Assembly (NCBI GenBank): GCA_039586365.1
Contig: JBDHKN010000044.1
Location: 1 to 50,739 of the forward strand
Reading direction: 5' to 3'
Length of the DNA stretch: 50,739 nt
Source of the DNA: Gemmatimonadota bacterium
GTDB lineage: Bacteria > Gemmatimonadota > Gemmatimonadetes > Gemmatimonadales > GWC2-71-9
The translations under genes were made by a program, and so were the position numbers. The notes under the pieces were generated by a model that was not told where the DNA came from, did not search any database, and worked only from the letters and a program-made list of their open reading frames with translations. Below are positions 1 through 20,923 of this stretch, piece after piece (the first letter of the stretch is position 1; each line of letters opens with the position of its first letter).

Positions 1-28
1 ATAGTGGGTGGGCTGGGCGGACACCGCA

Positions 29-210
29 ACCTCCTCCCGACCTCCCAAGGGTGCAAAACAGCACCCTAGAGCGCCCAAGACGGCCGTATACCACAGCAAA
101 AGCAAACGGCTCAGTCGCTCAGGCCAACCCGTTCGTCAATCGTCAATCGTCAATCGTCAATCCCTAGCTCCGGAGGAGGGACTCGAACCCCCGACCCGAC
201 GGTTAACAGC
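29..210 (-). repeat. 182-bp direct repeat of 7676-7857: tRNA-Asn 3' half (168-210) plus ~140 bp of downstream arm; att-type junction
   Basis: Ungapped match to 7676-7857 with 7 mismatches by manual alignment, all outside the tRNA part. Identity stops just past the anticodon loop (GGTTAACAGC|GGCT vs GGTTAACAGC|CGTC). Confidence 0.95.
133..160. repeat. Heptamer tandem repeat (TCGTCAA)x4
   Basis: Four perfect units seen directly. The copy at 7780-7807 has three perfect units and one degenerate unit. Confidence 0.95.
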
Positions 211-291
211 GGCTCTTTCCGACTGCTAAGTCATTGAGACGCTGGTTGCTACGGACGTGGCAAAGGTCGCGGACCTCGGTACGACCTCCTG
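203..291. other. Putative att P-arm, Asn type: core TTAACAGCGGCT, IHF-like TAAGTCATTGAGA (227-239), GACCTC repeats at 272 and 283
   Basis: Same motif order and near-identical spacing as 4752-4841. The IHF-like site matches the consensus YAAnnnnTTGATW with one mismatch. Confidence 0.65.
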
Positions 292-294
292 ATT

Positions 295-328
295 CCTGCT
301 TTCGGTCGTGGAGCCTTGGTTCCGGAGG
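295..328 (-). pseudogene. Decayed tRNA-Arg(CCG) 3'-half copy (att remnant)
   Basis: GAGCCTTGGTTCCGGAGG (311-328) matches GACCTTTGGCTCCGGAGG (2563-2580) at 15/18. Weaker gapped similarity extends to CCTGC...TTCG. Followed by TGTTACAA, as is the 2538-2581 copy. Confidence 0.6.
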
Positions 329-403
329 AAGACGCTTGTTACAACACCGCTGTCAATTCGGGAGAAGAAACGGAATCCGAAAAATGCCGGTCGCACAAGA
401 AGG

Positions 404-431
404 TTGCACGCGCGCAGCCAAGTGACATCTT
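404..431 (+). promoter_or_regulatory. Putative sigma70 promoter TTGCAC-N16-CATCTT with extended -10 TG
   Basis: Motif seen directly. The GACATCTTAGCTG block recurs at 2655-2667, upstream of the next cargo gene. Confidence 0.5.
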
Positions 432-536
432 AGCTGGAAGCAGATTTCCGCCGGTGGACTTCCGGCTGCCGCCGCCGCAGTAGACGCCGCAGTAGGACGC
501 CCGCCCGACGACGAGACCGCGAGGCTGCTGACGCGG
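424..536 (+). repeat. Conserved promoter/5'-leader module, copy 1 (candidate cis-regulatory RNA)
   Basis: Roughly 80% identical to 2655-2770, including the exact blocks GACATCTTAGCTG, AGACGCCGCAG, GACGCCCGCCCGACGACGA and GACCGCGAG. Confidence 0.85.
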
Positions 537-587
537 CCGAAGTCGTAGCTTCGGTTATTGCACCGCAACTGAATTGCCGGAGGGGCC

Positions 588-2486
588 ATGCGCTTCCGCG
601 TTGATGCCAGGCTTGCCTGTCGTCACGTCACATTGATGATTGGCTCGCTGCTGCCATGGGCCATCAGTGTCCCGCCCCAGGCACTCGCCCAGCAGGCCGG
701 GGGCTCCCAACCGCAGTATGAAGTCCGCCTCGAGAAGAGCGTATTGATCCACACGCGGGACGGCACGCGCCTCTCGACCGATCTCTACTTCCCGATCGGT
801 GCACCACAGCCGCTGCCGGCGGTGGTTATCAGGACACCGTACGACAAGAACGGGTCGCGCGACCCTCCGTCGGTACCGTTCGAGCTCGCCAAGCTCGGGT
901 ACGTGGCGGCCGTCCAGGACATGCGGGGCCGCTTCGAGTCCGAGGGCCATTATGTCGTGGGGCGCGCCAACCGGGACGACGGGTACGACTTCCTCAGCTG
1001 GATCGCCGATCAACCGTGGTCCAATGGGAAGGTCGCCACCTACGGCTGTTCTTACCTGGGCGAAAGCCAGCTGCAGCTTGCGGCGACGCGCCATCCGAAC
1101 CATACGGCTGTCACCGCTGATGCAGCTGGTGGCGGGTACGATGGCACGTACCGCCCCTTCGTGCTGAGGTTTGGAGGGGCAATCGAGCTCGCTGCTGCAC
1201 TCGACTGGTTCTACCGCTTCGGACTCAAGACCTTCCACCGTCCTCCGTCCGATGTGCCCGACTCGGTATACCGTACGATGCTTCAAAGCGTAGAAACCCG
1301 ACCGCCACGCCCCGAGCTAGACCTAGACGAGGCGTTCTGGAAGCTCCCCGTCATCGGAATCCTCCAGGAGAACGGGATCACGCCCACCGACTATGAGGAC
1401 TTCGTTTCGCACATCCCAGGCGACCGGTATTTCAAGGGCCTCAACTACGTCGATGACAACGACCGGTTCGACGTCCCGGCGCTGCACGTGAACTCCTGGT
1501 ACGACAGTGGAGTGAAGGAGACCCTGACCGTATTCAACCTCATGAGCCAAAACGCGGTATCGGCACGCGGTGGGAACAATCAATTCGCGATCATCTCACC
1601 CACACTACACTGCCACACGGGGCTTGCGACGGAACACACCGTCGTCGGTGACCGGGACATGGGTGACGCACGGTTCCCCATCTACGGCATATACGTTCGA
1701 TGGTTCGACTATTGGCTCAAAGGGGTCGAAAACGGCGTCACGGAGATGCCGAAGGTGCAGTACTATCTGATGGGTGCCGGCGAGTGGCGTTCAGCGGATG
1801 CCTGGCCGCTACCCGGGACCGAGTTCACCGCATTCTATTTGCATAGCCGCGGCCGTGCGAACACGAGACGCGGCGACGGCGTTCTGAACACGAAGCCGCC
1901 TGGCGAGGAACCACCCGATCGGTTCACCTACGATCCCGCGCACCCAGTGCCGTCGGTCGGCGGGTCCATGTGGAACGTCCGTGCCGATGCCGTTCAAGGT
2001 GGCTCATTTGACCAATCAGCGGTCGAGTTGCGGCAAGACGTTCTGGTATATACATCGGCCCCGCTTGAGGATGGTGTCGAGGTCACTGGGCCGCTGGAGG
2101 CAATCCTCTACGTCTCGTCGGATGCCAAGGACACCGACTTCACGGTGAAGCTCTTGGACGTCCTTCCCGATGGAACGGCCTACAACGTCCAAGAAGGAAT
2201 CTTTCGCGCCCGGTTCCGAGAGGGTTTCGATCGAGTCGTCCTCATGGAGGAAGGGGAAGTGTATCGGCTACGGATCGACCTGCAGGCAACCGGCATGTGG
2301 TTCGGCACTGGGCACCGAATCCGGCTTGAGGTGTCGAGTAGCAGTTTCCCGCGGTTTGATCGCAATCTGAACACTGGGGGCAACAACTACGACGAGAGTG
2401 AGTGGGTGGTGGCCTACAATGCCGTGTATCACACTGAGGAGTATCCCTCGCACGTGATGCTGCCGGTCGTGAGGCAAACGCGGTAA
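588..2486 (+). CDS. Secreted CocE/NonD family hydrolase (peptidase S15-like alpha/beta hydrolase with PepX_C domain)
   Basis: RDGTRLSTDLY, IRTPY, QDMRGRFESEG, nucleophile GCSYLG and C-terminal FPRFDRNLNTGG. Signal peptide ending ALA-Q. GGAGG RBS. Confidence 0.93.
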   Translation: MRFRVDARLACRHVTLMIGSLLPWAISVPPQALAQQAGGSQPQYEVRLEKSVLIHTRDGTRLSTDLYFPIGAPQPLPAVVIRTPYDKNGSRDPPSVPFELAKLGYVAAVQDMRGRFESEGHYVVGRANRDDGYDFLSWIADQPWSNGKVATYGCSYLGESQLQLAATRHPNHTAVTADAAGGGYDGTYRPFVLRFGGAIELAAALDWFYRFGLKTFHRPPSDVPDSVYRTMLQSVETRPPRPELDLDEAFWKLPVIGILQENGITPTDYEDFVSHIPGDRYFKGLNYVDDNDRFDVPALHVNSWYDSGVKETLTVFNLMSQNAVSARGGNNQFAIISPTLHCHTGLATEHTVVGDRDMGDARFPIYGIYVRWFDYWLKGVENGVTEMPKVQYYLMGAGEWRSADAWPLPGTEFTAFYLHSRGRANTRRGDGVLNTKPPGEEPPDRFTYDPAHPVPSVGGSMWNVRADAVQGGSFDQSAVELRQDVLVYTSAPLEDGVEVTGPLEAILYVSSDAKDTDFTVKLLDVLPDGTAYNVQEGIFRARFREGFDRVVLMEEGEVYRLRIDLQATGMWFGTGHRIRLEVSSSSFPRFDRNLNTGGNNYDESEWVVAYNAVYHTEEYPSHVMLPVVRQTR

Positions 2487-2537
2487 CTCTTCGTCGTATG
2501 CCCCACTGGTTGGCAGGACTGGAGCTGCAGCTCTCGA

Positions 2538-2581
2538 TGCGCCTGCCGCGATTCGAACGCGGGACCTTTGGCTCCGGAGGC
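2538..2581 (-). pseudogene. tRNA-Arg(CCG) 3' half (att-site fragment)
   Basis: Minus strand GCCTCCGGAGCCAAAGGTCCCGCGTTCGAATCGCGGCAGGCGCA: anticodon loop CTCCGGA, perfect T-arm CCGCG-TTCGAAT-CGCGG, acceptor strand CAGGCGC plus A. No D-arm or 5' half. Confidence 0.85.
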
Positions 2582-2603
2582 TAATTGAGACGTCCGTGGG
2601 CGT

Positions 2604-2623
2604 TGTGACAAAGTCTGTTACAA
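2604..2623. other. Direct repeats TGTGACAA/TGTTACAA at 12-bp period (putative arm-type or regulator sites)
   Basis: Seen directly. TGTTACAA also occurs at 337-344 after the other Arg-type core. Confidence 0.5.
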
Positions 2624-2654
2624 TCGGACGAAGACACAGAACCCGTCCCAAAGC

Positions 2655-2770
2655 GACATCTTAGCTGCAGTCAGAATACCGTCGGTGGCCTCCCGGCCTC
2701 CGCCGCCCGACAGACGCCGCAGGATGACGCCCGCCCGACGACGAAGACCGCGAGACCGCCTTCATCGCGG
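2655..2770 (+). repeat. Conserved promoter/5'-leader module, copy 2
   Basis: Paralog of 424-536, at the equivalent position between the tRNA-Arg fragment and the cargo gene. Confidence 0.85.
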
Positions 2771-2803
2771 CTGAGTCACAGGCCGACTGGCGAAGGGCTG
2801 ACT

Positions 2804-4660
2804 GTGGGTACAAGACAAGACTCGTGGCGGCTGCGTCGTCATCCACGCATCCTAGCGACTGTCCTATCCGTCCTTGCGGCAGTTCCTGCAGTAAGATCGC
2901 AGGAGTTCCCGCAGGAAGCTCTGCAGCATCGCAGGGTTGCCGGTCTTCGAGACCTGACTGGTTCGGTCTCCCGAGACGGGCGCTACTACGCCTTCACCAA
3001 TTGGCAGAGCAGTCAACTCGGCATCAAGGACCTCGGCTCTGGGGAAGACCGCTACATCGTGAGCCCGGTGTCAGAGCAGGAGTACCCCTACGCACCGAAG
3101 TTTGCGCCCGACGGGAGACGGATCGCCTACGTGTGGAGCAACGCGGACGGATCCAGCGAGCTGCGTGTGGTCAATGTGGACGGCTCTGGAGTTCGCACCA
3201 TCTATCGCGAATGGGTTCAGCCTCACGACTGGTCCCCAGATGGCTCCCACATCCTCACGAACGTCACTGGATCGGCGGCTTTGATCTCAGTCTCGGACGG
3301 ATCCGTCACTGAGCTGAAGGTCCTCGACTGGCGCTCTCCACTGGAGATGCGGTTCTCGCCTGACGGGCGCTACATCGCCTATGACGCGCTAGTTGAGGAG
3401 GACTCACCGCGCCGAGACATCTTCTTGCTCGCCGTCGAGACGAGGAAAGAAACCGCGCTCGTCGGGGATCCGGCGATCGATCGCGTCCTGGACTGGACGC
3501 CCGATGGTACGCGGCTCCTGTTCGACAGCGACCGAGGCATGGAACCGGGATCCGGTCGACGCGCCTGGTTGGTAGAAGCGGCTGATGGGGTGGCAGCCGG
3601 AGCGCCCACGTTGGTGACGCCAGAGCTCCGGGTGACGCGGGGATTGGGTTTCGACAGGGACGGATCCTACTACTACTGTTGCGGTCCGGCACCGGACCAG
3701 CCGAGGGGCGGGCTCTACCTCGCGGACTTCGACCCGACAACGGGTGAGCTTGAGGCCCCTCGGCTAACTGCAGGTGGCATTGGAGGGGCCGTAGACTGGT
3801 CACCAGACGGACGCTACTTGGCGTACGCGTACCACTCCTACCCGTTTCCGTCAACGCTTGGAATCCGCGCTGTGGAAAGTGGCGAGGAGCATCGAGTGCC
3901 CCTGACCCTCCGCCCGAATCAGCCGTTCGCGCTGCAGTGGTCACCGGACGGTGGGTGGCTGTTGGCACAAGCTCGTGATCACAGGGACCAGTGGGGTGTC
4001 TATCGGATCGATGCGAAGACGGGTCGGGCCGCTGCAGTCCTGCAGGAGCCCGGAGTGCGCTGGCCAGCCTGGCTGCACGATGGTCGAGTCGCCTACGTCT
4101 TGCCGGATGATAGCGATGACTCTCAGCGGATTTTCGTACGCGATCTCGGCACCAGTGAGGACCGCGATCTGTGCCGAGTGCCGGCACCTGCGCATCTCTC
4201 TCAATTGGCGGTTTCACCAGATGATCGGTGGTTGGCATTTCTCTGGTCGAATGTGCGCTCAGAGTGGGAAGAGCGAGGGGAGTGGGCGTTGAAGGTCGTC
4301 CCCATCGCAGGTGGTGCACCGCGCGACTTAGCCCGACTCTCCGTCCAGGGCCGGGACAGTCTGTCCTGGTATTTGAGACCCAGTGTGGCCTGGACGTCTG
4401 ATGCTCGGTATGTCCTCCACACGATCACTACGGTGGGGGAGGGTGGAGCCAAGACGGTGCTCTGGCGCATTCCTGCCGCAGGCGGAGAAGCGCACCCTGT
4501 TGACATTTCCTTGTCTGGGTTCGCCGTGTCCGGCATGAGCATGCATCCCAGCGGCCGTCAGATTGCCTTCACTGGGGTGTATCAGCGCGAGGTGTGGGAA
4601 ATCGCCGAGAGAGGTGAGGATATGTGGGTGCTGGAGAACTTCTTGCCGCCGCCGAAATGA
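2804..4660 (+). CDS. Secreted TolB-like beta-propeller protein (PD40 repeats)
   Basis: Many (W/F)SPDG-x-x-(I/L)AY repeats and an N-terminal signal peptide. Start codon (GTG) uncertain. Confidence 0.88.
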   Translation: MGTRQDSWRLRRHPRILATVLSVLAAVPAVRSQEFPQEALQHRRVAGLRDLTGSVSRDGRYYAFTNWQSSQLGIKDLGSGEDRYIVSPVSEQEYPYAPKFAPDGRRIAYVWSNADGSSELRVVNVDGSGVRTIYREWVQPHDWSPDGSHILTNVTGSAALISVSDGSVTELKVLDWRSPLEMRFSPDGRYIAYDALVEEDSPRRDIFLLAVETRKETALVGDPAIDRVLDWTPDGTRLLFDSDRGMEPGSGRRAWLVEAADGVAAGAPTLVTPELRVTRGLGFDRDGSYYYCCGPAPDQPRGGLYLADFDPTTGELEAPRLTAGGIGGAVDWSPDGRYLAYAYHSYPFPSTLGIRAVESGEEHRVPLTLRPNQPFALQWSPDGGWLLAQARDHRDQWGVYRIDAKTGRAAAVLQEPGVRWPAWLHDGRVAYVLPDDSDDSQRIFVRDLGTSEDRDLCRVPAPAHLSQLAVSPDDRWLAFLWSNVRSEWEERGEWALKVVPIAGGAPRDLARLSVQGRDSLSWYLRPSVAWTSDARYVLHTITTVGEGGAKTVLWRIPAAGGEAHPVDISLSGFAVSGMSMHPSGRQIAFTGVYQREVWEIAERGEDMWVLENFLPPPK

Positions 4661-4751
4661 CCAACAGCTGAGAGGAGTCTCTCCGTACCGAGCTTCAACC
4701 TCCGACCCGGTTTGAAGGACCAATCCGCTCACCCGTCGTGAGACGCGGTCA

Positions 4752-4841
4752 TTAACAGCGGCTATCTCTGCCTCGTCAACCTATTGCCGTGCCATCGGTT
4801 ATTAACCCCAGCGGTATCCCGGACCACCGGAAGACCTCCTG
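4752..4841. other. Second Asn-type att P-arm: TTAACAGCGGCT core, CAACCTATTG IHF-like site, GACCAC/GACCTC repeats
   Basis: Core to final GACCTCCTG spans 89 bp vs 88 bp in 203-291. IHF-like site offset is 25 vs 24. The 11-bp repeat period is kept. Confidence 0.6.
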
Positions 4842-4842
4842 T

Positions 4843-4935
4843 TCAGCACTTGGCCAAAGATGTTGCGCCGGGTGGTGAAACTGGGTAGAAGCGGTGGGCC
4901 AGGGCGATCTTGAGGCGGTCCAGGGCGTCAATCAT
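4843..4935 (-). pseudogene. Truncated N-terminus of a second Ser/Thr kinase paralog (MIDALDRLKIALAHRF..., 30 codons)
   Basis: Its ATG overlaps the end of the upstream kinase (ATGATTGA). The first 16 aa mirror MADILDRLKAALADRY, and TTGAGGCGGTCCAG is shared at the DNA level. Confidence 0.7.
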
Positions 4936-7582
4936 TCCCTTGCCCCACCCTCTCCTTCAACTCCTCGAACCAGTTGAGAACGACCCTGATCTGGTGTGGG
5001 GCTGCGTGCTCAACACTCTGGGTCATGACGAATCGCTGACCATCAGGCGCCACGTCGTAGGTCTGACTCCCGCTGGATGTGTACTCCACACCGTAGTCAC
5101 CCGATACCATCACTCGTGGTTCACCAGCAACGATCTCTCCGTCTGTCTGGACTCGGACTGACATGATGCTGGTACCTTGTCGGTAGAACAGCTCGGTTCC
5201 GTCAGCGGACCATGCCGGCTCACGTCCGCCGCTGCGGGAGATCGGCCATTTGCCTCCCGGACCCGGATAGGGCCGCACGTAGATCTCGTCCCGGCCACTC
5301 TCGTCGGACGTATAGGCGATCCAGCGACCGTCCGGTGAGAAGATAGGAGACCTCTCGTTGGCGCTGGTGGTAAGGAAGGGCTCAGCCTCAAAGGCCATAT
5401 CTTTCCTCTTCAGCATCCAGATGTCGCGCGCCGAGTCAGGTGTGATCTGGTAGAAAGCCAGCACCGAGCCATCCGGCGACCACGAGTGGGCAGAAACGGT
5501 ACGTGTGGAGTGAAACAAGAACTCCGGCTCGCCGCTCCCGTCGGCCGGCGTCCAATAGATACCGCGACCACCGGTGGCGAAAGCCACGCGCCGTCCGTCC
5601 GGGGCCCAGACAGGATCCGTCCCTCCAGCTGACGTGAGCCTGTTTCTGGTGCCCCGCTCGGAATCGTAGACCCAGATCTCGTTTGCCTCTTGAACGGCAA
5701 TGAACCGTCCATCTTGAGCGACGCGAGGATAGAAGTGACTGCCACGGTGGGCGGTCACCTGGCTTGTATGCCCTGCCCGATCCACCCACACCAGGGTGTT
5801 CTCGGTGGTCTCAGTCCCGCCCGGCATGTATACCATCGTGCCGGTGTTCGAAACTGCGGCGTAAGGGGTCGTGCCGAATGTGCCTGACCGGGTCCTGTGC
5901 ACGCCCCGCACCAGCGCGGTTGGAGATCCGAGGGCCTGCAATCTCCCCAAGTCGAAGCCCACGGCAGACAGCTCATTTCCCAGTGAGAACAACAGGTGCC
6001 CCGTGGGCAAATAGCGAGCGCCTGCCGCGCCCTCGATGCCGTCAACCCACTGTCGCACTCCCGTCTCGAGCGACACAACCGCAACGCGGAAGCCGCGAGA
6101 AGACCCGACCGTGAACAGCACGTTCTTGCCATCGGGCAACACTTGAGGCAATCCGTGACTCACCTCTCCACTATCGGCGGGCAGAGCGGTCAATGGCTCG
6201 GCGCTGCCGCCGTCTTCCGGCAATGTGTGGAGGCCCGTGCCGAGACCGCCAAAGACGATCGTGCCCGGCCCCCAAGACGCGCCGAGACTCACGTGCGGTG
6301 CATCTCCGATCGTAATTGGAGATCCTCCGGAGACGGCCACCTTCGCGATCGTCCGTGTAGCAGCGTACCCGATCCAGCGGCTGTCCGGCGAGATGAACGG
6401 CGTATGAGCACCTTCGGTACCGGGGAGTGGATGACTCTCGACCTCGTCGATCCGGCGTAGCAATAGCTGACTCACGTTACCGCGGCGAGCCGTATAAACG
6501 ATGAATGAGCCGTCCGGCGATATTGCGACTGGAGGAAAGCCTGCAACGGGCTCGAATTCCTCCGGAAAGTCGATATCGAAGCGAACGGGAAGTGACGGCG
6601 CGGTCGGTGCCGATCGCATGGCGGTCGCCATCACTGCGGCTGTTGCCAGCGCGGCGAGCGCAGGCCATAACAGCTTGGCGCCGAGTTGTCGCAGGGAGGT
6701 CTTTGCCGTGGCAGGTGCGATTGTTTCGGTGGTGGCGCCAACCGCTTGTTCGCACCGTACCAGTGCATCCACGACCTCAGCCGCGGTGGAGAAGCGGTCG
6801 GCTGGTAGTCGCGCCAGCGCCTTGTGAATGACACGAGCTAGTAGCGGCGGTGCCGTATCCCTGAGAGTCCTGACGTCAGGAGGTCGTTCGGTCAGTACCT
6901 TCGCCATGATGGCTTGCACAGTCGGGCCCGTGTGAGGCGTCACGCCTGCCAGCATCTCGAACATGACGCAGCCGAGCGAGTAGATGTCGCTCCTACCGTC
7001 GATCTCCGACTCACCGGATGCTTGTTCCGGACTCATGTACTGCGGAGTGCCCAACGACAGGCCGGTCTCGGTCAGGCGCTCGGAGCCAGCAGCTGTCACC
7101 GCTCGAGCGATTCCGAAATCCGCCACCACAGCCTCGTCACCCGAGAGGAGTATGTTCTCGGGCTTGATGTCGCGGTGCACGACACCGTGTTCGTGGGCGT
7201 AGCTCAGAGCCAGCGCCACCTCGCGTGCTATGCGCACTGCACTCTCAACGGGGAGTTGTTTCTCGCGGCGCAGCCGGTCCCGCAGGGACTCTCCTTCCAC
7301 GAACGGCATCACGTAGTAGAGGAACTGGTCTACTTTGCCGGAATCGTGTAGGGGGAGTATGTGCGGGTTCGTGAGACCGGCCGCGATCTCTATCTCTCTC
7401 AGAAACCGATCGGCACCGATTACCGCTGCGAGCTCGGGACGGAGCAGTTTGAGCGCTACCCTGCGATGGTGTTTGAGGTCCTCGGCGAGATACACCGTGG
7501 CCATCCCACCGGAACCAAGCTCTCGCTCGATAATGTAGCGGTCAGCCAGTGCAGCTTTGAGGCGGTCCAGAATGTCGGCCAT
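4928..7582 (-). CDS. Hanks-type Ser/Thr protein kinase with TM helix and C-terminal TolB-like (PD40) propeller
   Basis: GSGGMATV, VALK, HRDIKPEN, DFG, GTPQYMSPE; hydrophobic segment around aa 303-320; SPDG repeats. Confidence 0.95.
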   Translation of the reverse strand: MADILDRLKAALADRYIIERELGSGGMATVYLAEDLKHHRRVALKLLRPELAAVIGADRFLREIEIAAGLTNPHILPLHDSGKVDQFLYYVMPFVEGESLRDRLRREKQLPVESAVRIAREVALALSYAHEHGVVHRDIKPENILLSGDEAVVADFGIARAVTAAGSERLTETGLSLGTPQYMSPEQASGESEIDGRSDIYSLGCVMFEMLAGVTPHTGPTVQAIMAKVLTERPPDVRTLRDTAPPLLARVIHKALARLPADRFSTAAEVVDALVRCEQAVGATTETIAPATAKTSLRQLGAKLLWPALAALATAAVMATAMRSAPTAPSLPVRFDIDFPEEFEPVAGFPPVAISPDGSFIVYTARRGNVSQLLLRRIDEVESHPLPGTEGAHTPFISPDSRWIGYAATRTIAKVAVSGGSPITIGDAPHVSLGASWGPGTIVFGGLGTGLHTLPEDGGSAEPLTALPADSGEVSHGLPQVLPDGKNVLFTVGSSRGFRVAVVSLETGVRQWVDGIEGAAGARYLPTGHLLFSLGNELSAVGFDLGRLQALGSPTALVRGVHRTRSGTFGTTPYAAVSNTGTMVYMPGGTETTENTLVWVDRAGHTSQVTAHRGSHFYPRVAQDGRFIAVQEANEIWVYDSERGTRNRLTSAGGTDPVWAPDGRRVAFATGGRGIYWTPADGSGEPEFLFHSTRTVSAHSWSPDGSVLAFYQITPDSARDIWMLKRKDMAFEAEPFLTTSANERSPIFSPDGRWIAYTSDESGRDEIYVRPYPGPGGKWPISRSGGREPAWSADGTELFYRQGTSIMSVRVQTDGEIVAGEPRVMVSGDYGVEYTSSGSQTYDVAPDGQRFVMTQSVEHAAPHQIRVVLNWFEELKERVGQGND

Positions 7583-7663
7583 ACGGCGACTCCTCTGGGT
7601 CCCGCTCTAAGCTACGACCTGCGCCTGGAGAGGGCCAGATAGCAATGGGAGCGGGTTCGACGC

Positions 7664-7691
7664 GACCTCTCCAAGACCTCCTCCCGACCTC
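7664..7691. other. Three GACCTC direct repeats at 11-bp period (putative P' arm integrase-binding sites)
   Basis: GACCTC at 7664, 7675 and 7686. The same hexamer and period occur at 272/283, 28/39 and 4822/4833. Confidence 0.6.
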
Positions 7692-7744
7692 CCAAGGGTG
7701 CAAAACAGCACCCTAGAGCGCCCAAGACGGCCGCATAGCACAGT

Positions 7745-7781
7745 AAAAGCAAACGGGTCAGCCGCTCAGGCCAACCCGTTT
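7745..7781 (-). terminator. Rho-independent terminator of tRNA-Asn
   Basis: Minus strand AAACGGGTTGGCC-TGAGC-GGCTGACCCGTTT forms a 13-bp stem (two G-U pairs), followed by GCTTTT. Confidence 0.7.
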
Positions 7782-7814
7782 GTCGATCGTCAATCGTCAA
7801 TCGTCAATCCCTAG

Positions 7815-7887
7815 CTCCGGAGGAGGGACTCGAACCCCCGACCCGACGGTTAACAGCCGTCTGCTCTACCAACTGAGCTACTCCGGA
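7815..7887 (-). tRNA. tRNA-Asn(GTT), 73 nt, CCA not encoded
   Basis: TCCGGAG acceptor stem, D-arm AGCTCAGTTGGTAGAGC, anticodon loop CTGTTAA, T-loop TTCGAGT, discriminator G followed by CTA. Confidence 0.97.
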
Positions 7888-8015
7888 TCGATCTCGTCGG
7901 CTGTTCCTTCAAAGCCGCTTATAATGCTACTGTGCTCTCCCCGTAACCACGGGAGCCCGTGAATAGCGGGAAAGGCAGTCTAATTTGTACTCTACCGCCA
8001 CGCAAGCGACCCAAG

Positions 8016-8648
8016 TCACATGGTGTTGATGAAGATGGCCAGCGACAGGGCTAGCTGAGCGATCTGGACTATGAGGAACCACTCCGTCGTGGTGATTGCT
8101 TTGCGGGGGACGAACACCTGATCGCCCGAGCGAATACCTATCTCCGCCAGAGTGCGGCCCCGCATGGCATCCTCCACACTCATTTCTTCCTGCTCAGCCA
8201 GGCGCAGAAGCCTAATCCGACTGGTGTTGCCGTCCTGGTTGGCTCCGCCGGCCATGGCCACTACGTCGATTGCAGTGAGTGTAGGGTCGACCGTGTAGAG
8301 GCCCGGCGACCGCACCTCTCCCAAGACAGCGACTCGGAACAGGGGGGTCACCGTCACAAACGGCGCGTTGAATAGCGTTTCGAGTCCGGCCCTGACGCTG
8401 TCCCGTACTTGAGCCACACTGAGGTTTCTCGTGTCGATGTCGCCCAGCAGCGGGTAGTGGAACTTGCCGTTCTCGTCGATCTGGAACTGCCCCGAGAACT
8501 GCTCCTGCCCCCAAACCTCGACACGCAGAACGTCACCAGGCTGCAGCGTGTACGTCGAGATGCTGGGAGTGACTATTGGACGCTGTTCCTGTGCTGGGCT
8601 AGGTGCGGCTAGAATGGTCGCTACTGCTAAGGAATAGAGGATTCGCAT
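8016..8648 (-). CDS. Polysaccharide biosynthesis/export family protein (Poly_export + SLBB, Wza-like)
   Basis: YTLQPGDVLRVEVWG, YPLLGDI, VAVLGEVRSPGLY, IRSGDQVFVP; signal peptide from MRILY. Confidence 0.88.
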   Translation of the reverse strand: MRILYSLAVATILAAPSPAQEQRPIVTPSISTYTLQPGDVLRVEVWGQEQFSGQFQIDENGKFHYPLLGDIDTRNLSVAQVRDSVRAGLETLFNAPFVTVTPLFRVAVLGEVRSPGLYTVDPTLTAIDVVAMAGGANQDGNTSRIRLLRLAEQEEMSVEDAMRGRTLAEIGIRSGDQVFVPRKAITTTEWFLIVQIAQLALSLAIFINTM

Positions 8649-8755
8649 GGCCCTAAGATTGTGACCTGCAGAGAATGGGTCAACAGTAGTCGTCACCTTC
8701 GGACCAATGTCCTCCTATTGGGGCGAGGGACGAGGCAGGGGGATGGCGCTGCAGC

Positions 8756-11565
8756 TCAGCCGGCACGGGCCTCAGCAGCCAGGCGGTCTAGGTTCAGTAC
8801 ATCTTGCAGATACGAGGCTGTGTGTGTCTCCGTCGCAGCAACCTCTTCTGGCGTTCCTTGCGCCACTACTTCACCCCCTTGGGAGCCGCCTTCGGGGCCC
8901 ATATCGATGATCCAATCGGCGCGTTTGATGATGTCGAGGTGGTGTTCGATAACCAACACTGTGTGCCCCGCATCCACCAGTCGATCGAGCACTTTGATGA
9001 GCGTCCGTACGTCGTCAAGGTGGAGTCCTGTGGTTGGCTCGTCCATGACGTAGAGACGGCGTTCCCCCTTGCGGCGGGCCCCCGCTAGCTGCCGCGCTAT
9101 CTTGAGTCGCTGCGCTTCGCCGCCTGACAACGTCGTGGCTGGCTGCCCCAGCCGGAGATAACCGAGTCCCACCTGCTGCAGGTGCCAGAGCATTTTCCCC
9201 AGTCGTTCTTGGTGCCGGAATCGGACCATTGCGTCATCCACGGTGAGGTTGAGCACGTCGTGTATCGACAGGCCCTTGATGCCAACGTCCAACACCAGCG
9301 AGAACCTTCACAGCTCTCGCAGGGAATGAACACGTCGGCCATGAAGACCATCTCGATCTGGATAAATCCGGCTCCGCCGCAGGCCTTGCACCGCCCACCC
9401 TCGACGGCGTTGAAACTGAAAGTTGCAGGCGTGTACCCCCTGGCTCGGGCCAGTGGTTGGCTGGCAAACAGCGAACGGATTTCATCGAACCCGCGCACAT
9501 AGGTCACTGGATTGGAACGGGGGGTCCGTCCTATCGGCGATTGGTCGATGAGGACGACGTCATGCAACTGCTCCCAACCGACTAGGTTCCCGACGTGGCC
9601 GACCGGTTCTCCTAGATGTTCCTTCGCTCCGTGTGATCCCTTGATTCTGGCCGCGAGCTGACGGTAGAGGATGTCATGCACCAGCGTCGATTTGCCGGAC
9701 CCGGACACGCCTGTGACCACCGTCAGCGTACCCAGTGGGATCGCAACGTCGACATTTGTGACATTGTGAAGTCGAGCGCCCTCGACTTTGAGCCAACCGG
9801 AAGCCGGGGTGCGCCTGAAGCTGGGAACGGCAATACGCTTCACCCCGGCCAGGTACTTCCCAGTCAGGGTGTCGGCGGCGCGTTCGGCTCCTGCCACCGA
9901 TCCGCAGTAGACCTGCTCCCCACCGTGCTCACCACTCCCGGGGCCCAACTCGATCATGTGATCTGCGGCGCGGATCGCTGCCGGATCGTGCTCTACCACG
10001 ACGACGGTGTTGCCACCATCACGTAGCCGCTTCAGGAGCCCCAGGAGGCGGGAGATGTCTCGTGGATGTAGCCCGATCGAGGGTTCGTCGAGTACGTACA
10101 GTGTATCCACTAGACCCGCGCCGAGAGCGTTGGCCAGTGCTATGCGCTGTGCTTCACCGCCGGACAGAGTGCGAGTCAGCCTGTCCAGTGACAGGTAGCC
10201 GACACCAACGTCACACAGGAACTGTACCCGATCTGCCAGCTCCTTCAAAACCGTCTGAGCGACCGCAGTCTCGAATTCGGACAAGTCGAGGTTGTCGAGC
10301 CACGTCCTGAGTCTGTCGGCCGTGAGTGCGCTCACCTCGCCGATCGACACGGAATTGACGCGCACGGCCAACGCCTCGGATCTCAGTCGCGCACCACCGC
10401 ATTCCGGACAGGGATAGGCTTTTTGATACTGCCGGAGGAATACGCGGATGTACTGCTTGTAACGTTTCCTCTCGAGGCTCCGTAGGAACGGGAAGATGCC
10501 GACGAAGCGCCCAACTTTACCGTGAAGTAGCAACCGTCGGTGTGTCGCGCGGAGACTCTGCCACGGCGCATCGAACGGTATGCCTTCGTGCTGTGCCGCG
10601 TCTCTGAGCATGCGACGTCGGTTGGTGTAGCGAGGTTTTGTCCAGGGGTCGAGTGCTCCCTGGGCAAGAGTGCGCTGCGGGTCCGGCACTACCAGTGCTT
10701 CGTCGTACTCCAGCACGGCCCCGAACCCGTTGCATGCAGGGCAGGCACCGCGCGGGTTATTGAAGGAGAACAGGGTCGGACTCAGTGCAATGGCTGCGGT
10801 GCCACAGTCGGTGCAACGCGGGTGTTGCGAGAAGCGGTACGTTCGGTCCGGAGTGAGCACGTTGCTCTGACCGTCTCCTTCGGCGAAGGCGAGTGCCAGT
10901 GAGTCGGCAACTCGACCGCGGTTGGAGGGATCCAATTTCAGTCTGTCTACTGCAACCTGAACGTCATCGCCTTCCAACTTGGCTGTTGGCGGTAGGTCGT
11001 CGATTCGATACACCGTGCTCTCGACGACCACGCGTACGAATCCCATGGCCTGGAGGTTCTCGAGAATGAGCAGGTGACTCACTCGAGTGGACCGAGGAAT
11101 GACGAACGTGATCACGGCCGTCTGTCCCAGCGCCAGGTCCAGCAAACGACTGGCGGCTGTGGTGGGAGAGTCGACAATCACCGGAGAGCCGCATACGTGA
11201 CAGAACTGCCTGCCAACCTTCGACCACAGCAGCCGTAGGTGGTCAAAGATCTCGGTTGCGGTCCCGACAGTTGACCGGCTCGATGTGCTGGGGTTCTTCT
11301 GCTCGATGGCTACGGCTGGGGAAATCCCAGAGAGGCCGTCGATGTCCGGTCGCGATAACCGTTCGAGGAACTGCCTGGCATAGCTCGATAGCGACTCCAC
11401 GTACCGGCGCTGACCCTCGGCGTAGAGCGTGTCGAAGGCAAGAGAACTCTTGCCCGATCCGGAAGGGCCGGTAATGACAGTCAGCGCATGGCGGGGAATA
11501 TGAACAGTGATTCCCTTGAGATTGTGCTGTCTGGCTCCGCGGACTGTGATGGAGTCGGCCGGCAT
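8756..11565 (-). pseudogene. uvrA: Excinuclease ABC subunit A, split by a frameshift near 9297 (ORFs 9097-11577 and 8756-9295); pseudogene or assembly error
   Basis: GARQHNLK, GPSGSGKSS, zinc-finger CxxC pairs and two LSGGEAQR signatures. The second signature and DEPTTGLH lie in a different frame. Confidence 0.9.
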
Positions 11566-11651
11566 GGAGTGAAGCATAGCCGAGCCGCTCCGGCACCAAC
11601 AGGGCTCGAAGTTGACGGGGTCGTATCTGAAGCCGTAGCTTGGCCTGCGAC

Positions 11652-18522: not shown

Positions 18523-19596
18523 TCAAAATGCAGAAGCGAGTCGGGATACCCAGGTGTCGACGAGCGTTATATAGTCGTCCACACCGTCCTCCCCGGCCAC
18601 ATGCTCAGGTACCATCACGTGCTTGATGCCGGTTCGGGACGCCACCCGCTCGACTTGGCCGCGGCTGAAGTAGTTGGCTGCAAACAGCACTTCTATGTTC
18701 TCGGTCTCGATGAAGTCGATCACTTTCCGAACATGGCTAGGTGAAGGCTCGATGCCCGGTTTGGGCTCTACGTATATAGCGCATTCGATCTTGAAACGCG
18801 CGCTGAAGTAAACCCAGTTCTTGTGGTAGCACACCATACGCTGGTTCCGGAACTTGGCGCCTTCAGCCAGCCAACCGCCGAGATACTCGGTGAGGGGCCT
18901 GCCCTCGTACGTCTGCTGCTCTGCGAAAGCCCAGAACTCGTAGTTGCGGGCCAGGTTGAAGAGCGTCTCGCCACCCAGGAGTTCGACCAGCCGGTCACCG
19001 AATAACCTGACCATCACTCGCCTCTCAAATGCTGCTAGGTTTGCGTCGTATGCGCGTGCATTTCCGCCGTCCACGCGCTTCAGCCCCGTAGCAATGTTCC
19101 TGGCGATGAGAATCCCGTTGATTGGATCTGTATGAATGTGTGGATTACCAAACACGTGGACATCTCCCCCTGACCGGGAGACATTCTCGGGAACCTCGAG
19201 GAGCCTGATTCCCGAGTACGCGACCAAGTGGCCAGGTCCACCTTCATCGACCGTCGCATTGTTCGCACGATCCAGGATCGCAGGGACCCAAAGCTCGAGA
19301 TCTAGCCCGGTGACAACGAAGAGATCGGCGCGCTGGACCTTGACGGCGAAACTTGGTCGTGGGTTGACGAAGTGCGGATCCTCATCGCCGCGTGCAATGG
19401 ACTCCACCTCAGCGAGGTCACCGGCGACCTCCGCTGTGATGGCGGCATAGGTGGGAAGCGTGGTCACCACTCTCAACTTCCTCTGGCCCAGGGCTGTCGT
19501 CGCCATCAGCGACAGCGCGGTAACGGTACTGAATGAGAGCCTTATCATGCTCATGGCAAATCGTCTTGGCTTCAGTCTGTTGTTTGTTGTCGGCAT
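18523..19596 (-). CDS. Metal ABC transporter substrate-binding protein (ZnuA/TroA family)
   Basis: DPH, GLDLELW, GNPH, YH and VEPKPGIEPSPSH motifs. Start may be 19554. Confidence 0.92.
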   Translation of the reverse strand: MPTTNNRLKPRRFAMSMIRLSFSTVTALSLMATTALGQRKLRVVTTLPTYAAITAEVAGDLAEVESIARGDEDPHFVNPRPSFAVKVQRADLFVVTGLDLELWVPAILDRANNATVDEGGPGHLVAYSGIRLLEVPENVSRSGGDVHVFGNPHIHTDPINGILIARNIATGLKRVDGGNARAYDANLAAFERRVMVRLFGDRLVELLGGETLFNLARNYEFWAFAEQQTYEGRPLTEYLGGWLAEGAKFRNQRMVCYHKNWVYFSARFKIECAIYVEPKPGIEPSPSHVRKVIDFIETENIEVLFAANYFSRGQVERVASRTGIKHVMVPEHVAGEDGVDDYITLVDTWVSRLASAF

Positions 19597-19609
19597 TGCT
19601 GTCTCTCAA

Positions 19610-20923
19610 TCAGTATGACTCGTGTTTGTGCGGTCCCATGGCCCATACTAGTTGCAGGAGCGCCGTGTGATTCGCGCTCTCTCCTGCGTGTCTCAGGTAG
19701 TCGTATTGTAGGCGCAAATAGAGCCACTCGCTCTGCCACCACGTGATGCTCGGCACGATCTGGTGGATGGCTGGCTCGTCCTCCGTGCTGTGTAGATAAT
19801 CCCCCCGGGCGCCCAACGTCAGCCTACGATTAACTCGGTAGTTCAACTGCGCATAGCCCCCACTGCCTGTCGCTTGAGCACCGGCTTCGTCCTTCTTCGA
19901 GAAATACCACTCTCCCTTGAAATGAAATGCCCGGTACAGCGCGCGGTTGGGGGGCGCCCACCTGAAGGCGAAGTCCAATCCGAGGAGGCCTGACTGCAGT
20001 GATGCATCCTTGTTCTCTCCGTACACTCCCGTGGTACCGAACTGCACATATGCACTCGGGCTCAGATCCCAGAAGCTCTGGAAGCGGCCCAGGAAGCTCA
20101 TGTCTCCACCGTCCTCGAACATCGCTTCGTTACTTGCCGCTGTGGCCTCCAACGTGATTGTCTGAGTAGCAGGTCCGGTGGAAAAGCTGGGTAGCGTGAG
20201 TCCGATACCGGGCTGAATCAGCCCGTCTTCCCCCAGAAAGATCACCGTTGGGAGGGGTCGGTCCACTTCCCACAATGCGTGAGTGTGCCAACGGTTGTAG
20301 AGACCAATCTCCTGGCGGAACTTCCCCGCCTTGAGCCCGATCGATCCCGGCAGACCGACCCAGTACGCGTAGGCTTCTTCGACGTGGAAGCCGCCGTGAC
20401 CGTGTCCAGTCTCTGCCTCAACGCCTTCGTCTCCGGCCTCGGGGAAGCCTGCGATGGGGAATTCCTCCTCATAAGCTGCGAAGATCTTGGTTCGAGTATA
20501 CGGATCCAGCGCAGACTGAAATGAGAACTCGAACTCCCGCGGAGTAACGCCTAGACGGTTTCGCTCGTCGGCCGGGCCCGTGAAACTGCCGACCACGTCA
20601 CCGGTGACCGAGATCTCTGGGTTTAGCCCACTCAGGTTGCGGGTGCGGCTCACCTGCGCTGCTGTGGTGTCCACATCGGCCTGAGCTTGCTGCGCCGCGG
20701 CTTGCGCGGCCGCTCGGAGGGCTGCCAATTCGTCTGTGGCGCGAGTGGTATCCTGCCCTTGGCGGATCAGCTGCTGAAGGACCCGTTCAAGTGAGTCGAG
20801 TCGGGTCCTGAGAGCTCGGACGATCTGCTCGAGCGAGTCGGCTCTTGTCGCTTCCTGGGCCAGAGATGTTGCGGGAGCGAAGGAGACCGCAAACAACGTA
20901 AGCGCGCAGATCCTGGTACGCAT
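19610..20923 (-). CDS. Outer-membrane beta-barrel protein associated with metal uptake; N-terminal coiled coil and His-containing C-terminus
   Basis: Signal peptide, LNPEISVTGD, DPY, EEAY, G.YNRWHTH, alternating beta strands, ends GPHKHESY. Confidence 0.8.
   Translation of the reverse strand: MRTRICALTLFAVSFAPATSLAQEATRADSLEQIVRALRTRLDSLERVLQQLIRQGQDTTRATDELAALRAAAQAAAQQAQADVDTTAAQVSRTRNLSGLNPEISVTGDVVGSFTGPADERNRLGVTPREFEFSFQSALDPYTRTKIFAAYEEEFPIAGFPEAGDEGVEAETGHGHGGFHVEEAYAYWVGLPGSIGLKAGKFRQEIGLYNRWHTHALWEVDRPLPTVIFLGEDGLIQPGIGLTLPSFSTGPATQTITLEATAASNEAMFEDGGDMSFLGRFQSFWDLSPSAYVQFGTTGVYGENKDASLQSGLLGLDFAFRWAPPNRALYRAFHFKGEWYFSKKDEAGAQATGSGGYAQLNYRVNRRLTLGARGDYLHSTEDEPAIHQIVPSITWWQSEWLYLRLQYDYLRHAGESANHTALLQLVWAMGPHKHESY

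Follow-up and report, generated by a model that had tools for sequence, protein, structure and literature searches.

Integrase-less units and tRNA-derived attachment ends stacked at a tRNA-Asn gene of a Gemmatimonadota bacterium

Integrons combine IntI, an attI site and an attC array of mostly single, exchangeable genes. Closer to the locus considered here are the cis-mobilizable elements (CIMEs), whose accretion has been described for the ICESt1/ICESt3 family (PMC5704250, PMC7563491). CIMEs of 1.2–13 kb and microCIMEs of 130–220 bp are known, and CIMEs always lie farthest from the target gene (PMC7563491). The window, i.e. the whole stretch of 50,739 nucleotides that was analyzed, is contig C75 (JBDHKN010000044.1) of assembly G000 (GCA_039586365.1; 5.44 Mb, 132 contigs, 86% complete), which comes from a Gemmatimonadota bacterium of sediment, and it begins at a contig end. 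Beside its tRNA-Asn(GTT) gene lies a stack of tRNA-derived attachment (att) ends and three accessory genes, in which a preliminary description had seen an integron-like array of minimal one-gene cassettes mobilized in trans; the one-gene scale, presented there as new, is covered by the known CIMEs. Related genomes and contigs are cited by handle, and the unpublished genomes G021 and G090 support no claim made here.

The stack is probably an accretion hotspot at tRNA-Asn, made of integrase-less, CIME-like elements that retain the att ends of tyrosine-integrase elements and whose ends and cargo have been reshuffled. The locus itself displays a 7.6-kb unit with conserved arms and an anticodon-loop crossover, and inside it a damaged Asn-type right end together with right ends of the tRNA-Arg(CCG) type. 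Comparison of genomes indicates that the stack is a real, family-wide feature, and the gene-collecting habit appears common to many relatives. A candidate integrase family, a swap of cargo between end types and the promoter-leader described below are new in this analysis; the preliminary description identified the parts of the stack correctly, but took them for more complete, the leader for more exclusive to the cassettes and the scale for newer than they are.

Attachment ends and cargo at tRNA-Asn

The target gene, the intact tRNA-Asn(GTT) (7814–7887, minus strand), stands in its usual place beside wza and uvrA, with the same synteny in relatives. It adjoins the Asn-type left arm L1 (7664–7813), which is joined directly to the upstream region of a kinase gene (together 7583–7813, minus strand), with 127/139 positions identical to C37:489–627. 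A second copy of the left arm (29–167, minus strand) is 131/138 identical to 7676–7813 and is followed by a tRNA-Asn 3' half (168–210, minus strand), which comprises tRNA positions 31–74, has its crossover in the anticodon loop and includes the core TTAACAGC at 203–210. The core is also part of the Asn-type right arm R1 (203–291, minus strand), which contains two GACCTC arm words at 272–289 and, at 226–239, a site like that of integration host factor (IHF); G000 encodes two IHF/HU-family genes. Together, 29–210 and 7676–7857 form a 182-bp repeat of 96% identity, made of 43 bp of tRNA 3' half and the arm. L1 and R1 are the sole intact cognate pair of ends and, as in a CIME, they enclose neither an integrase nor transfer genes: the 7.6 kb between them (211–7857) hold all three genes of the stack, which encode a CocE-like hydrolase, a propeller protein and a kinase.

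The second left arm contains a hairpin, heptamer repeats and distal GACCTC words. With it an older Asn-type unit begins at 167, truncated by the contig end; the arm is kept in G003, G064, G551, G487 and one metagenome contig. The heptamers, tandem (TCAATCG)n repeats at 133–162 and 7790–7809, are common genome-wide, and related runs flank tRNAs in relatives. As arm sites they were rejected, being a genome-wide simple repeat that is absent from homologous arms.

A 182-bp duplication with one copy at the very start of a contig could be a misjoin, and the four runs, available as short low-depth contigs, contain neither a spanning piece nor a predicted circle junction, at a depth too low to show one. 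The two arm copies differ at 7/138 positions, so that they are not an exact assembly duplicate, the concern raised in the preliminary description; moreover, the same junction of right arm, half and left arm occurs in an independent metagenome contig, between a kinase on one side and the C-terminal remnant of an integrase on the other, and a similar one occurs in G064. An assembly artefact is thus extremely improbable.

The interior of the unit is more damaged. Next to R1 lies a probable, weak, decayed right end of the tRNA-Arg(CCG) type (295–345, minus strand), composed of a truncated half and one TGTTACAA word at 337–344. Its half (295–328) matches the intact Arg half at 20/34 positions, a pairwise score that is not significant, being reached by 2,792 of 20,000 random windows; an independent model, built from other genomes, gives an E of 0.03. 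Leader 1 (404–530, plus strand) and the gene for a CocE/NonD-family hydrolase of 632 aa (588–2486, plus strand; PF02129 and PF08530, TIGR00976 at 392 bits, an N-terminus that resembles a signal peptide by eye) follow. The tRNA-Arg(CCG) 3' half (2538–2581, minus strand; tRNA positions 31–74) agrees with the tRNA of a relative at 43/44 positions; it is 51 bp from the CocE stop codon, and no Arg left arm is visible there. The adjoining short-form Arg(CCG) right arm (2581–2623, minus strand) has two TGT(C/A)ACA words (2604–2611 and 2616–2623 on the plus strand), is found in the same short form in G006 and is recognized with an E of 3e-15 by a model built without the window's copies. An intact tRNA-Arg(CCG) was not found in this assembly, which is 86% complete. 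Another contig of the genome carries a long-form Arg(CCG) right arm with the core only (C44:488–591), near the start of a contig with two leaders.

Directly inside the Arg arm lies leader 2 (2657–2760, plus strand), followed by the gene for a PD40 (TolB-like) β-propeller protein of 618 aa (2804–4660, plus strand; PF07676), which is not TolB itself, since TIGR02800 scores below its cut-off, and the start of which looks like a signal peptide by eye. The window's propeller gene thus sits between Arg and Asn ends, the latter being the diverged Asn-type right end R2 (4697–4841, minus strand), with an arm, a core at 4752–4759, an insert of ~42 nt and tRNA positions ~41–55. R2 aligns in register with R1 at a score that none of 20,000 random genome windows attained, and its extension to 4697 is collinear with two right ends in G487; an arm-only hidden Markov model (HMM) of right arms did not detect it at E 0.01, and its identification is owed to the pairwise test and the G487 alignment, not to the HMM. 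An insert of ~42 nt at the anticodon loop is present in R2 and in the two G487 ends. At the R2 arm the start of a second kinase gene is cut off (4842–4934, minus strand), as recognized from its translation and as a repeat, and beyond it lies the gene for a Ser/Thr kinase fused to a PD40 β-propeller, of 884 aa (4928–7582, minus strand). Since this is one of ~68 kinase paralogs in the genome, a kinase as cargo is less special than it may seem.

These features, from the intact tRNA-Asn, the arms, the cores and the Arg half to the two leaders, the three cargo genes and the kinase remnant, were confirmed by tRNA calls, repeats and profiles. The lack of a recombinase was also borne out, as PF00589 found no tyrosine recombinase on the window contig and a custom integrase HMM none in 1–9000. 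The spacers between the genes are accounted for by tRNA att modules, and tRNA is the sole Rfam match in the window. The genes are indeed separated by att-derived DNA, as previously stated, without a cognate attL/attR pair for each of them: inside the unit, the ends are either damaged or right ends that lack their left arm, the Arg-type one-gene segments have no cognate pair, and the kinase gene by itself has L1 on one side and the damaged R2 on the other. The window therefore does not hold three complete one-gene cassettes, and the minimal cassettes of 2–3 kb that had been proposed give way to a single 7.6-kb Asn unit.

The uvrA gene beyond the stack (8756–11577) appears as two overlapping frames of 826 and 179 aa, owing to a frameshift or a sequencing error; relatives have one long frame.

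Related ends, their integrases and other tRNA hotspots

Sequence comparison identifies the modules as att ends that have been conserved from tyrosine-integrase elements and that recur with different cargo across genera, as the preliminary description had anticipated. The exact 15-mer arm word of the Arg ends occurs at 24 sites in 16/401 genomes (reversed control, 0). At 16 of them an Arg core lies no more than 130 bp away, at seven the arm stands beside a core that is damaged or missing, and one resembles a chance match. Cargo at these arms usually begins just inside and points inward, and consists mostly of exported-looking proteins (judged by eye) and kinases. No integrase lies within 1.5 kb of any of the 24 sites, nor did the custom profile reveal one in 18 longer regions; in 10 relatives, PF00589 had no match within the array contigs or ranges, its matches falling outside the array ranges. 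Ten intact tRNA-Arg(CCG) loci showed either a half downstream or an integrase; they form a selected sample biased to small units that fit one contig. In nine of them the proximal unit contains no integrase and measures 0.18, 0.7, 1.3, 1.6, 1.8, 2.1, 3.3, 7.3 or 15 kb.

The tenth locus, in G082, has an intact integrase oriented towards the tRNA, with TGTCAC-type words after it. Among 120 listed homologs of this integrase (of 184), 34 read through arm words into an antisense tRNA-Arg(CCG), and eight further ones read into Gly, Ile, Val or Pro tRNAs. As the reading frame of the integrase continues across its own arm sites as far as the antisense of the target tRNA, the tail of the protein reveals the target (P0001–P0120). 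A cognate family of predicted integrases thus exists for the Arg-type ends. In G000 it has an intact member on C105, at tRNA-Ala(TGC), which is 53% identical and has its catalytic residues, and another on C74, at tRNA-Leu(TAA), without the first catalytic Arg. The latter is unlikely to act in trans for lack of this residue, and no viral relatives were found.

For the Asn-type ends, R1 is 82% identical over 98 bp to a right arm of G487 and was aligned also with L084 and G064, and right arms are 82–90% alike between and within genera. At eight tRNA-Asn loci of seven close relatives, the left arm is present in two (G003:C604 and, in part, G015), the DNA downstream is unrelated in five, and one locus is masked; the window's cargo genes are in none of them. 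A 6.7-kb integrase-less Asn unit of G064 carries a kinase and abuts the tRNA with a junction similar to that of the window. Among 40 further tRNA-Asn loci, many of them short, G487 stands out with a 2.5-kb proximal Asn unit and, on C296, four tandem right arms that span 15 kb; just inside two of these arms, kinase genes begin. The C296 array (L215 with L178) is located beside wza/uvrA in the orientation opposite to the window's tRNA-Asn, with the intact tRNA on another contig, possibly through an inversion. A diverged right arm was seen in G567, and in G551 a left arm followed by an integron-integrase remnant. Integron-integrase genes or remnants are found near Asn-type arms at two independent loci (L084:1045–2067 and 9232–9678; L175:3272–3514), and apart from two XerC/D-like genes and an IntI-sized one, recombinases are few in several relatives.

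An integrase with Asn-type arms was not found by searching 401 genomes with left-arm DNA (three non-self matches, one of them a simple repeat) or with right-arm DNA (two candidates per genome scored), nor with the remnant protein of L084 in 301 genomes, where none of the 16 loci has Asn arms. It was likewise not found among 71 integrase loci, in a comparison of the read-through open reading frame (ORF) at 8–226 with longer proteins, or at the 40 further tRNA-Asn loci, a weak survey in which many loci are short and end within 1.5 kb; two Asn-arm patterns had no match in viral contigs. These searches mean 'not found' and are not proof of absence. The expected integrase with matching arms was thus recovered for the Arg ends, in the G082 family, and not for the Asn ends, and mobilization in trans, as it had been proposed, was not borne out.

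tRNA halves occur on at least 10 other contigs of G000, and at least six integrase genes lie beside its tRNAs, so that autonomous elements are also common in this genome. At a tRNA-Arg(TCT) (C3:17043–19679), two tandem integrase-less units of 962 and 1,601 bp, 84–87% alike, carry small lipoprotein-like genes; a 5' half of tRNA-Arg(TCT) is present at C87:91111. At a tRNA-Phe on C125 (154–3420), a single kinase gene is followed by a Phe-type right end, and further halves (Phe, Trp, Pro-like, Lys, Ala) were noted on C125, C37, C51, C94 and C8. Some elements, at tRNAs Leu (TAA), Met and Pro, apparently supply the tRNA with its 5' side (C74:1214–2590, L007; C30:1092–1132; C116:3970–3994; C50:85880). 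Inserts of 40–55 nt in the T-loop split tRNA 3' halves in G000 (C37:16022–16112 and 19565–19651; C94:24146) and at L089:8457–8541, L088:1445, L136:6848–6947 and L178:6058–6147.

The junction that joins the left arm to the region upstream of the kinase gene is found again on C37, where another kinase follows and where the copy is cut by an insertion sequence (IS)-like transposase, and related junctions, ~92% identical, are present in contigs of runs X1 and X3. The congener G002 contains two copies of the propeller gene with 85–86% nucleotide identity, both with a leader: upstream of the first there is neither a tRNA piece nor an Arg arm, and behind the second lies a right end of the tRNA-Phe type (score 183 vs a top null score of 97). 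The mixture of two tRNA specificities noted earlier is thus confirmed and extended by a third end type beside the same cargo. The meeting of one cargo gene with different tRNA end types indicates that cargo has moved between them.

Signs of decay and of propagation stand side by side in these data, and both speak for the favored accretion hotspot; the former include the IS-truncated C37 copy and the C74 integrase without its first catalytic Arg, the latter the tandem units at tRNA-Arg(TCT). According to one alternative, each unit brought an integrase of its own, which was lost on the spot, and stayed immobile from then on; the att DNA would consist of scars, and the repeated junctions would result from old duplications. 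This is in line with the integrase remnants beside arms and tRNA halves at many loci, some of them C-terminal, the cut kinase start, the insert-split and core-only halves and the position of the integrase next to the left arm, where it is easily lost; the islands of tycheposons, too, contain partial tRNAs and fragmented integrases (bioRxiv 10.1101/2020.12.28.424599). Pure decay is nevertheless unlikely, as right arms have remained so similar between and within genera, the same integrase-free arm-cargo junction stands before different kinases and 9/10 of the selected proximal Arg(CCG) units are without integrase.

The opposite alternative is purpose-built gene capture, in which a common integrase family, acting in trans, would routinely cut out and insert minimal non-autonomous cassettes, whose arms are kept by selection and whose right end bears an inward promoter-leader, to give an integron-like array at tRNAs. 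It agrees with the proximal integrase-less units of many genera, down to 0.18 kb, with cargo that starts just within right arms, with shared arm-cargo junctions and with a single integrase family that has a common arm word, several target tRNAs and the intact C105 member in this genome. However, most inner ends are damaged or without a left arm, at least six elements at tRNAs of the genome bear an integrase, and the searches for an Asn-arm integrase were negative; such capture is tenable, if less probable than the reshuffled hotspot preferred here. A wider version, in which a few dispersed integrases with a common arm word and several tRNA targets would serve integrase-free cassettes, often with a portable GACGCC leader at the right end, throughout the Gemmatimonadales, and so feed their large repertoire of kinases and exported proteins while escaping island finders that demand an integrase, is put forward as a doubtful possibility.

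The promoter-leader

Leaders 1 and 2 belong to a dispersed family with 31–32 sites in G000, located on C9, C10, C18, C29, C37, C44, C54, C59, C63, C74, C80, C102, C107, C111, C128 and C131 besides the window. Its members share a promoter-like hexamer pair, a CGGTGGCC...GCCGCC block, 0–5 GACGCC repeats 9–13 nt apart and a fixed end motif 30–100 nt before the gene. Leader 1 has hexamers similar to -35 and -10 (404–409 and 426–431), a CGGTGG-GCCGCC block, one AGACGCC repeat and an end motif at 496–514, and leader 2 keeps a -10-like CATCTT without the TTGCAC of the -35 position. Matches were found in 6/7 congeners, 56 of them in G002, and the exact pattern has 26 matches among 185,579 species genomes, all from Gemmatimonadota. 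Judged by its distribution, the leader is a conserved, lineage-restricted element before dozens of unrelated genes, without an Rfam match, and represents a separate lead. No published description of it or of these Gemmatimonadota cassettes was found in the literature covered, to which subscription papers do not belong. The accessible part of PMC11237797 reports uncharacterized repeats of 90 and 150 bp in two Gemmatimonadota strains, and that of PMC11316326 contains nothing on integrases.

The leader had been regarded as built into the cassettes. It does lie directly inside 7/24 Arg arm sites, in three genera, which speaks for purpose-built capture; against this, most leaders are unlinked to tRNA pieces. 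A tRNA piece within 400 bp upstream accompanies 2/31 leaders in G000 (both in the window), 0/21 in G006 and 0/14 in the arrays of G002, where leaders follow each other every 0.5–2.7 kb without tRNA pieces; for the matches of the species collection the count is 4/27, and random positions give 0.4%. The leader as an obligatory part of tRNA cassettes was therefore rejected.

A promoter-like score is passed by 56/82 of the regions upstream of leaders vs 4–13 in shuffles; the score was tuned with the sequences in view, the copies are related to each other, and a strict scan did not call those of the window. In 31 leader sequences, none of six predicted pairs shows a compensatory change, and a structured RNA or a known RNA family was rejected for want of covariation and of an Rfam match. 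A leader peptide was excluded, because repeat periods of 9–13 nt break the frame, and so was a viral origin, three exact matches to the end motif in viral contigs being without the rest of the module. There is about an even chance that the leader is a portable promoter with a binding array for a DNA- or RNA-binding protein, spread by recombination between copies in the manner of the promoter early stem-loops (PeSLs).

A terminator-like hairpin follows 12/55 genes led by the main leader subtype vs 11/2,525 long ORFs, and in 13/55 it precedes the next promoter. The conserved hairpin contains GGCGTCT, the inverse of the leader repeat (C10:9347, C10:10880, C18:10757, C44:11003, C44:13410, C54:18693, C59:70181 and others). 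Hairpins, leaders, arms and kinase starts could all serve homologous recombination, which in a further explanation would be the main driver of the shuffling, the integrases having merely seeded the ends. PeSLs (PMC2839356, PMC4122927) and the conserved upstream repeats (CUPs; PMC5027574) offer precedents, and the ~30 leaders per genome, the hairpins and the tandem leader-gene arrays of G002 fit such a process. Yet the leader subtype of the window is without the hairpin (0/7), and the borders of the units coincide with anticodon-loop cores, which is what site-specific recombination would produce; this explanation is quite improbable.

Origin of the stack and known systems

For the reshuffled accretion hotspot favored here, the following course may be envisaged. 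Small tyrosine-integrase elements would integrate at tRNA anticodon loops, with the integrase, in the Arg family, at the left end and facing the tRNA. Deletions would take away the integrase and often the left arm as well, leaving a right arm and an inward-facing cargo gene with a promoter of its own. Later integrations, deletions and recombination among related arms could then fuse pieces from different tRNA hotspots, which would account for Arg ends inside an Asn unit and for one cargo gene at Arg, Asn or Phe ends. The cargo would be expressed through the dispersed promoter-leader, which forms a second module in its own right and would make single genes portable. The inner one-gene segments are probably fixed scars, the candidate for a mobile piece being the 7.6-kb Asn unit. 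There is somewhat less than an even chance that a related integrase, with its gene at another place, occasionally acts in trans to excise or integrate two-armed units.

Several points weigh against this explanation. All searches for an integrase with Asn-type arms were negative, so that the origin of the outer Asn unit is proposed by analogy with the Arg ends, for which an integrase is known, and ancestry from an ICE or IME (an integrative and conjugative or an integrative and mobilizable element) is conjectural. The proximal unit is integrase-less, in contrast to described CIMEs, which lie farthest from the target gene. The Arg half at 295–328 is weak, the array sample is biased to small one-contig units, and on its left side the array is interrupted where the contig stops. 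The favored explanation and its rivals overlap in part.

If intact units do move in trans, they would constitute a natural tool for inserting single genes, with short arms, several tRNA targets and a named candidate integrase family, and such movement would help to account for the way kinases and exported proteins have expanded in these genomes. If they are scars, they form a readable record of islands trimmed to one useful gene. As Islander discards candidates without an integrase (PMC4383910), such traffic of accessory genes in an abundant, barely cultured phylum goes uncounted.

The units are similar to the tDNA islands of Islander in pairing a tRNA with a 3' fragment of the same orientation, in the anticodon-loop crossover and in their tandem arrays; those islands, however, require an integrase and have size peaks at 13.6 and 39.9 kb, while the present units mostly span 0.2–7 kb and have none (PMC4383910). 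Likewise, the tycheposons and cryptic elements of Prochlorococcus are small cargo elements at tRNAs, with successive integration, partial tRNAs and integrase fragments, but tycheposons encode their own integrase and often replication genes, neither of which is found in the units of the window (bioRxiv 10.1101/2020.12.28.424599).

The leader resembles the PeSL cassettes of T4-type phages (PMC2839356, PMC4122927) and the CUPs of IncN plasmids (PMC5027574), being a repeated promoter module, often with a stem-loop ahead of it, before unrelated single accessory genes. It differs from both in being chromosomal and in its conserved transcribed part of 60–140 nt with 0–5 GACGCC repeats, and the subtype of the window has no stem-loop.

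With integrons the stack has in common an array of mostly single, exchangeable genes, and the comparison drawn in the preliminary description holds as an analogy: here the genes are delimited by tRNA-derived att ends that contain arm sites, they have their own promoters, and no recombinase is encoded on the contig.

The likeness to CIMEs goes furthest, as attL and attR are kept, the integrase and transfer genes are gone, and tandem stacks and chimeric att junctions occur in both (PMC5704250, PMC7563491). Described CIMEs derive from ICEs or IMEs and move in cis with a functional neighbor (PMC5704250, PMC7563491); as such descent and cis-mobilization are conjectural for the stack, it is not filed as a CIME outright. 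In the window the target-proximal unit is itself integrase-less, there is no functional neighbor on the contig, and ends of different tRNA specificity are mixed. The Asn unit abuts the intact tRNA, as do those of G064 and G487, and does not lie distal to a mobilizing element. It is this presence of tRNA-proximal units without an integrase that is unusual in comparison with the known CIMEs.

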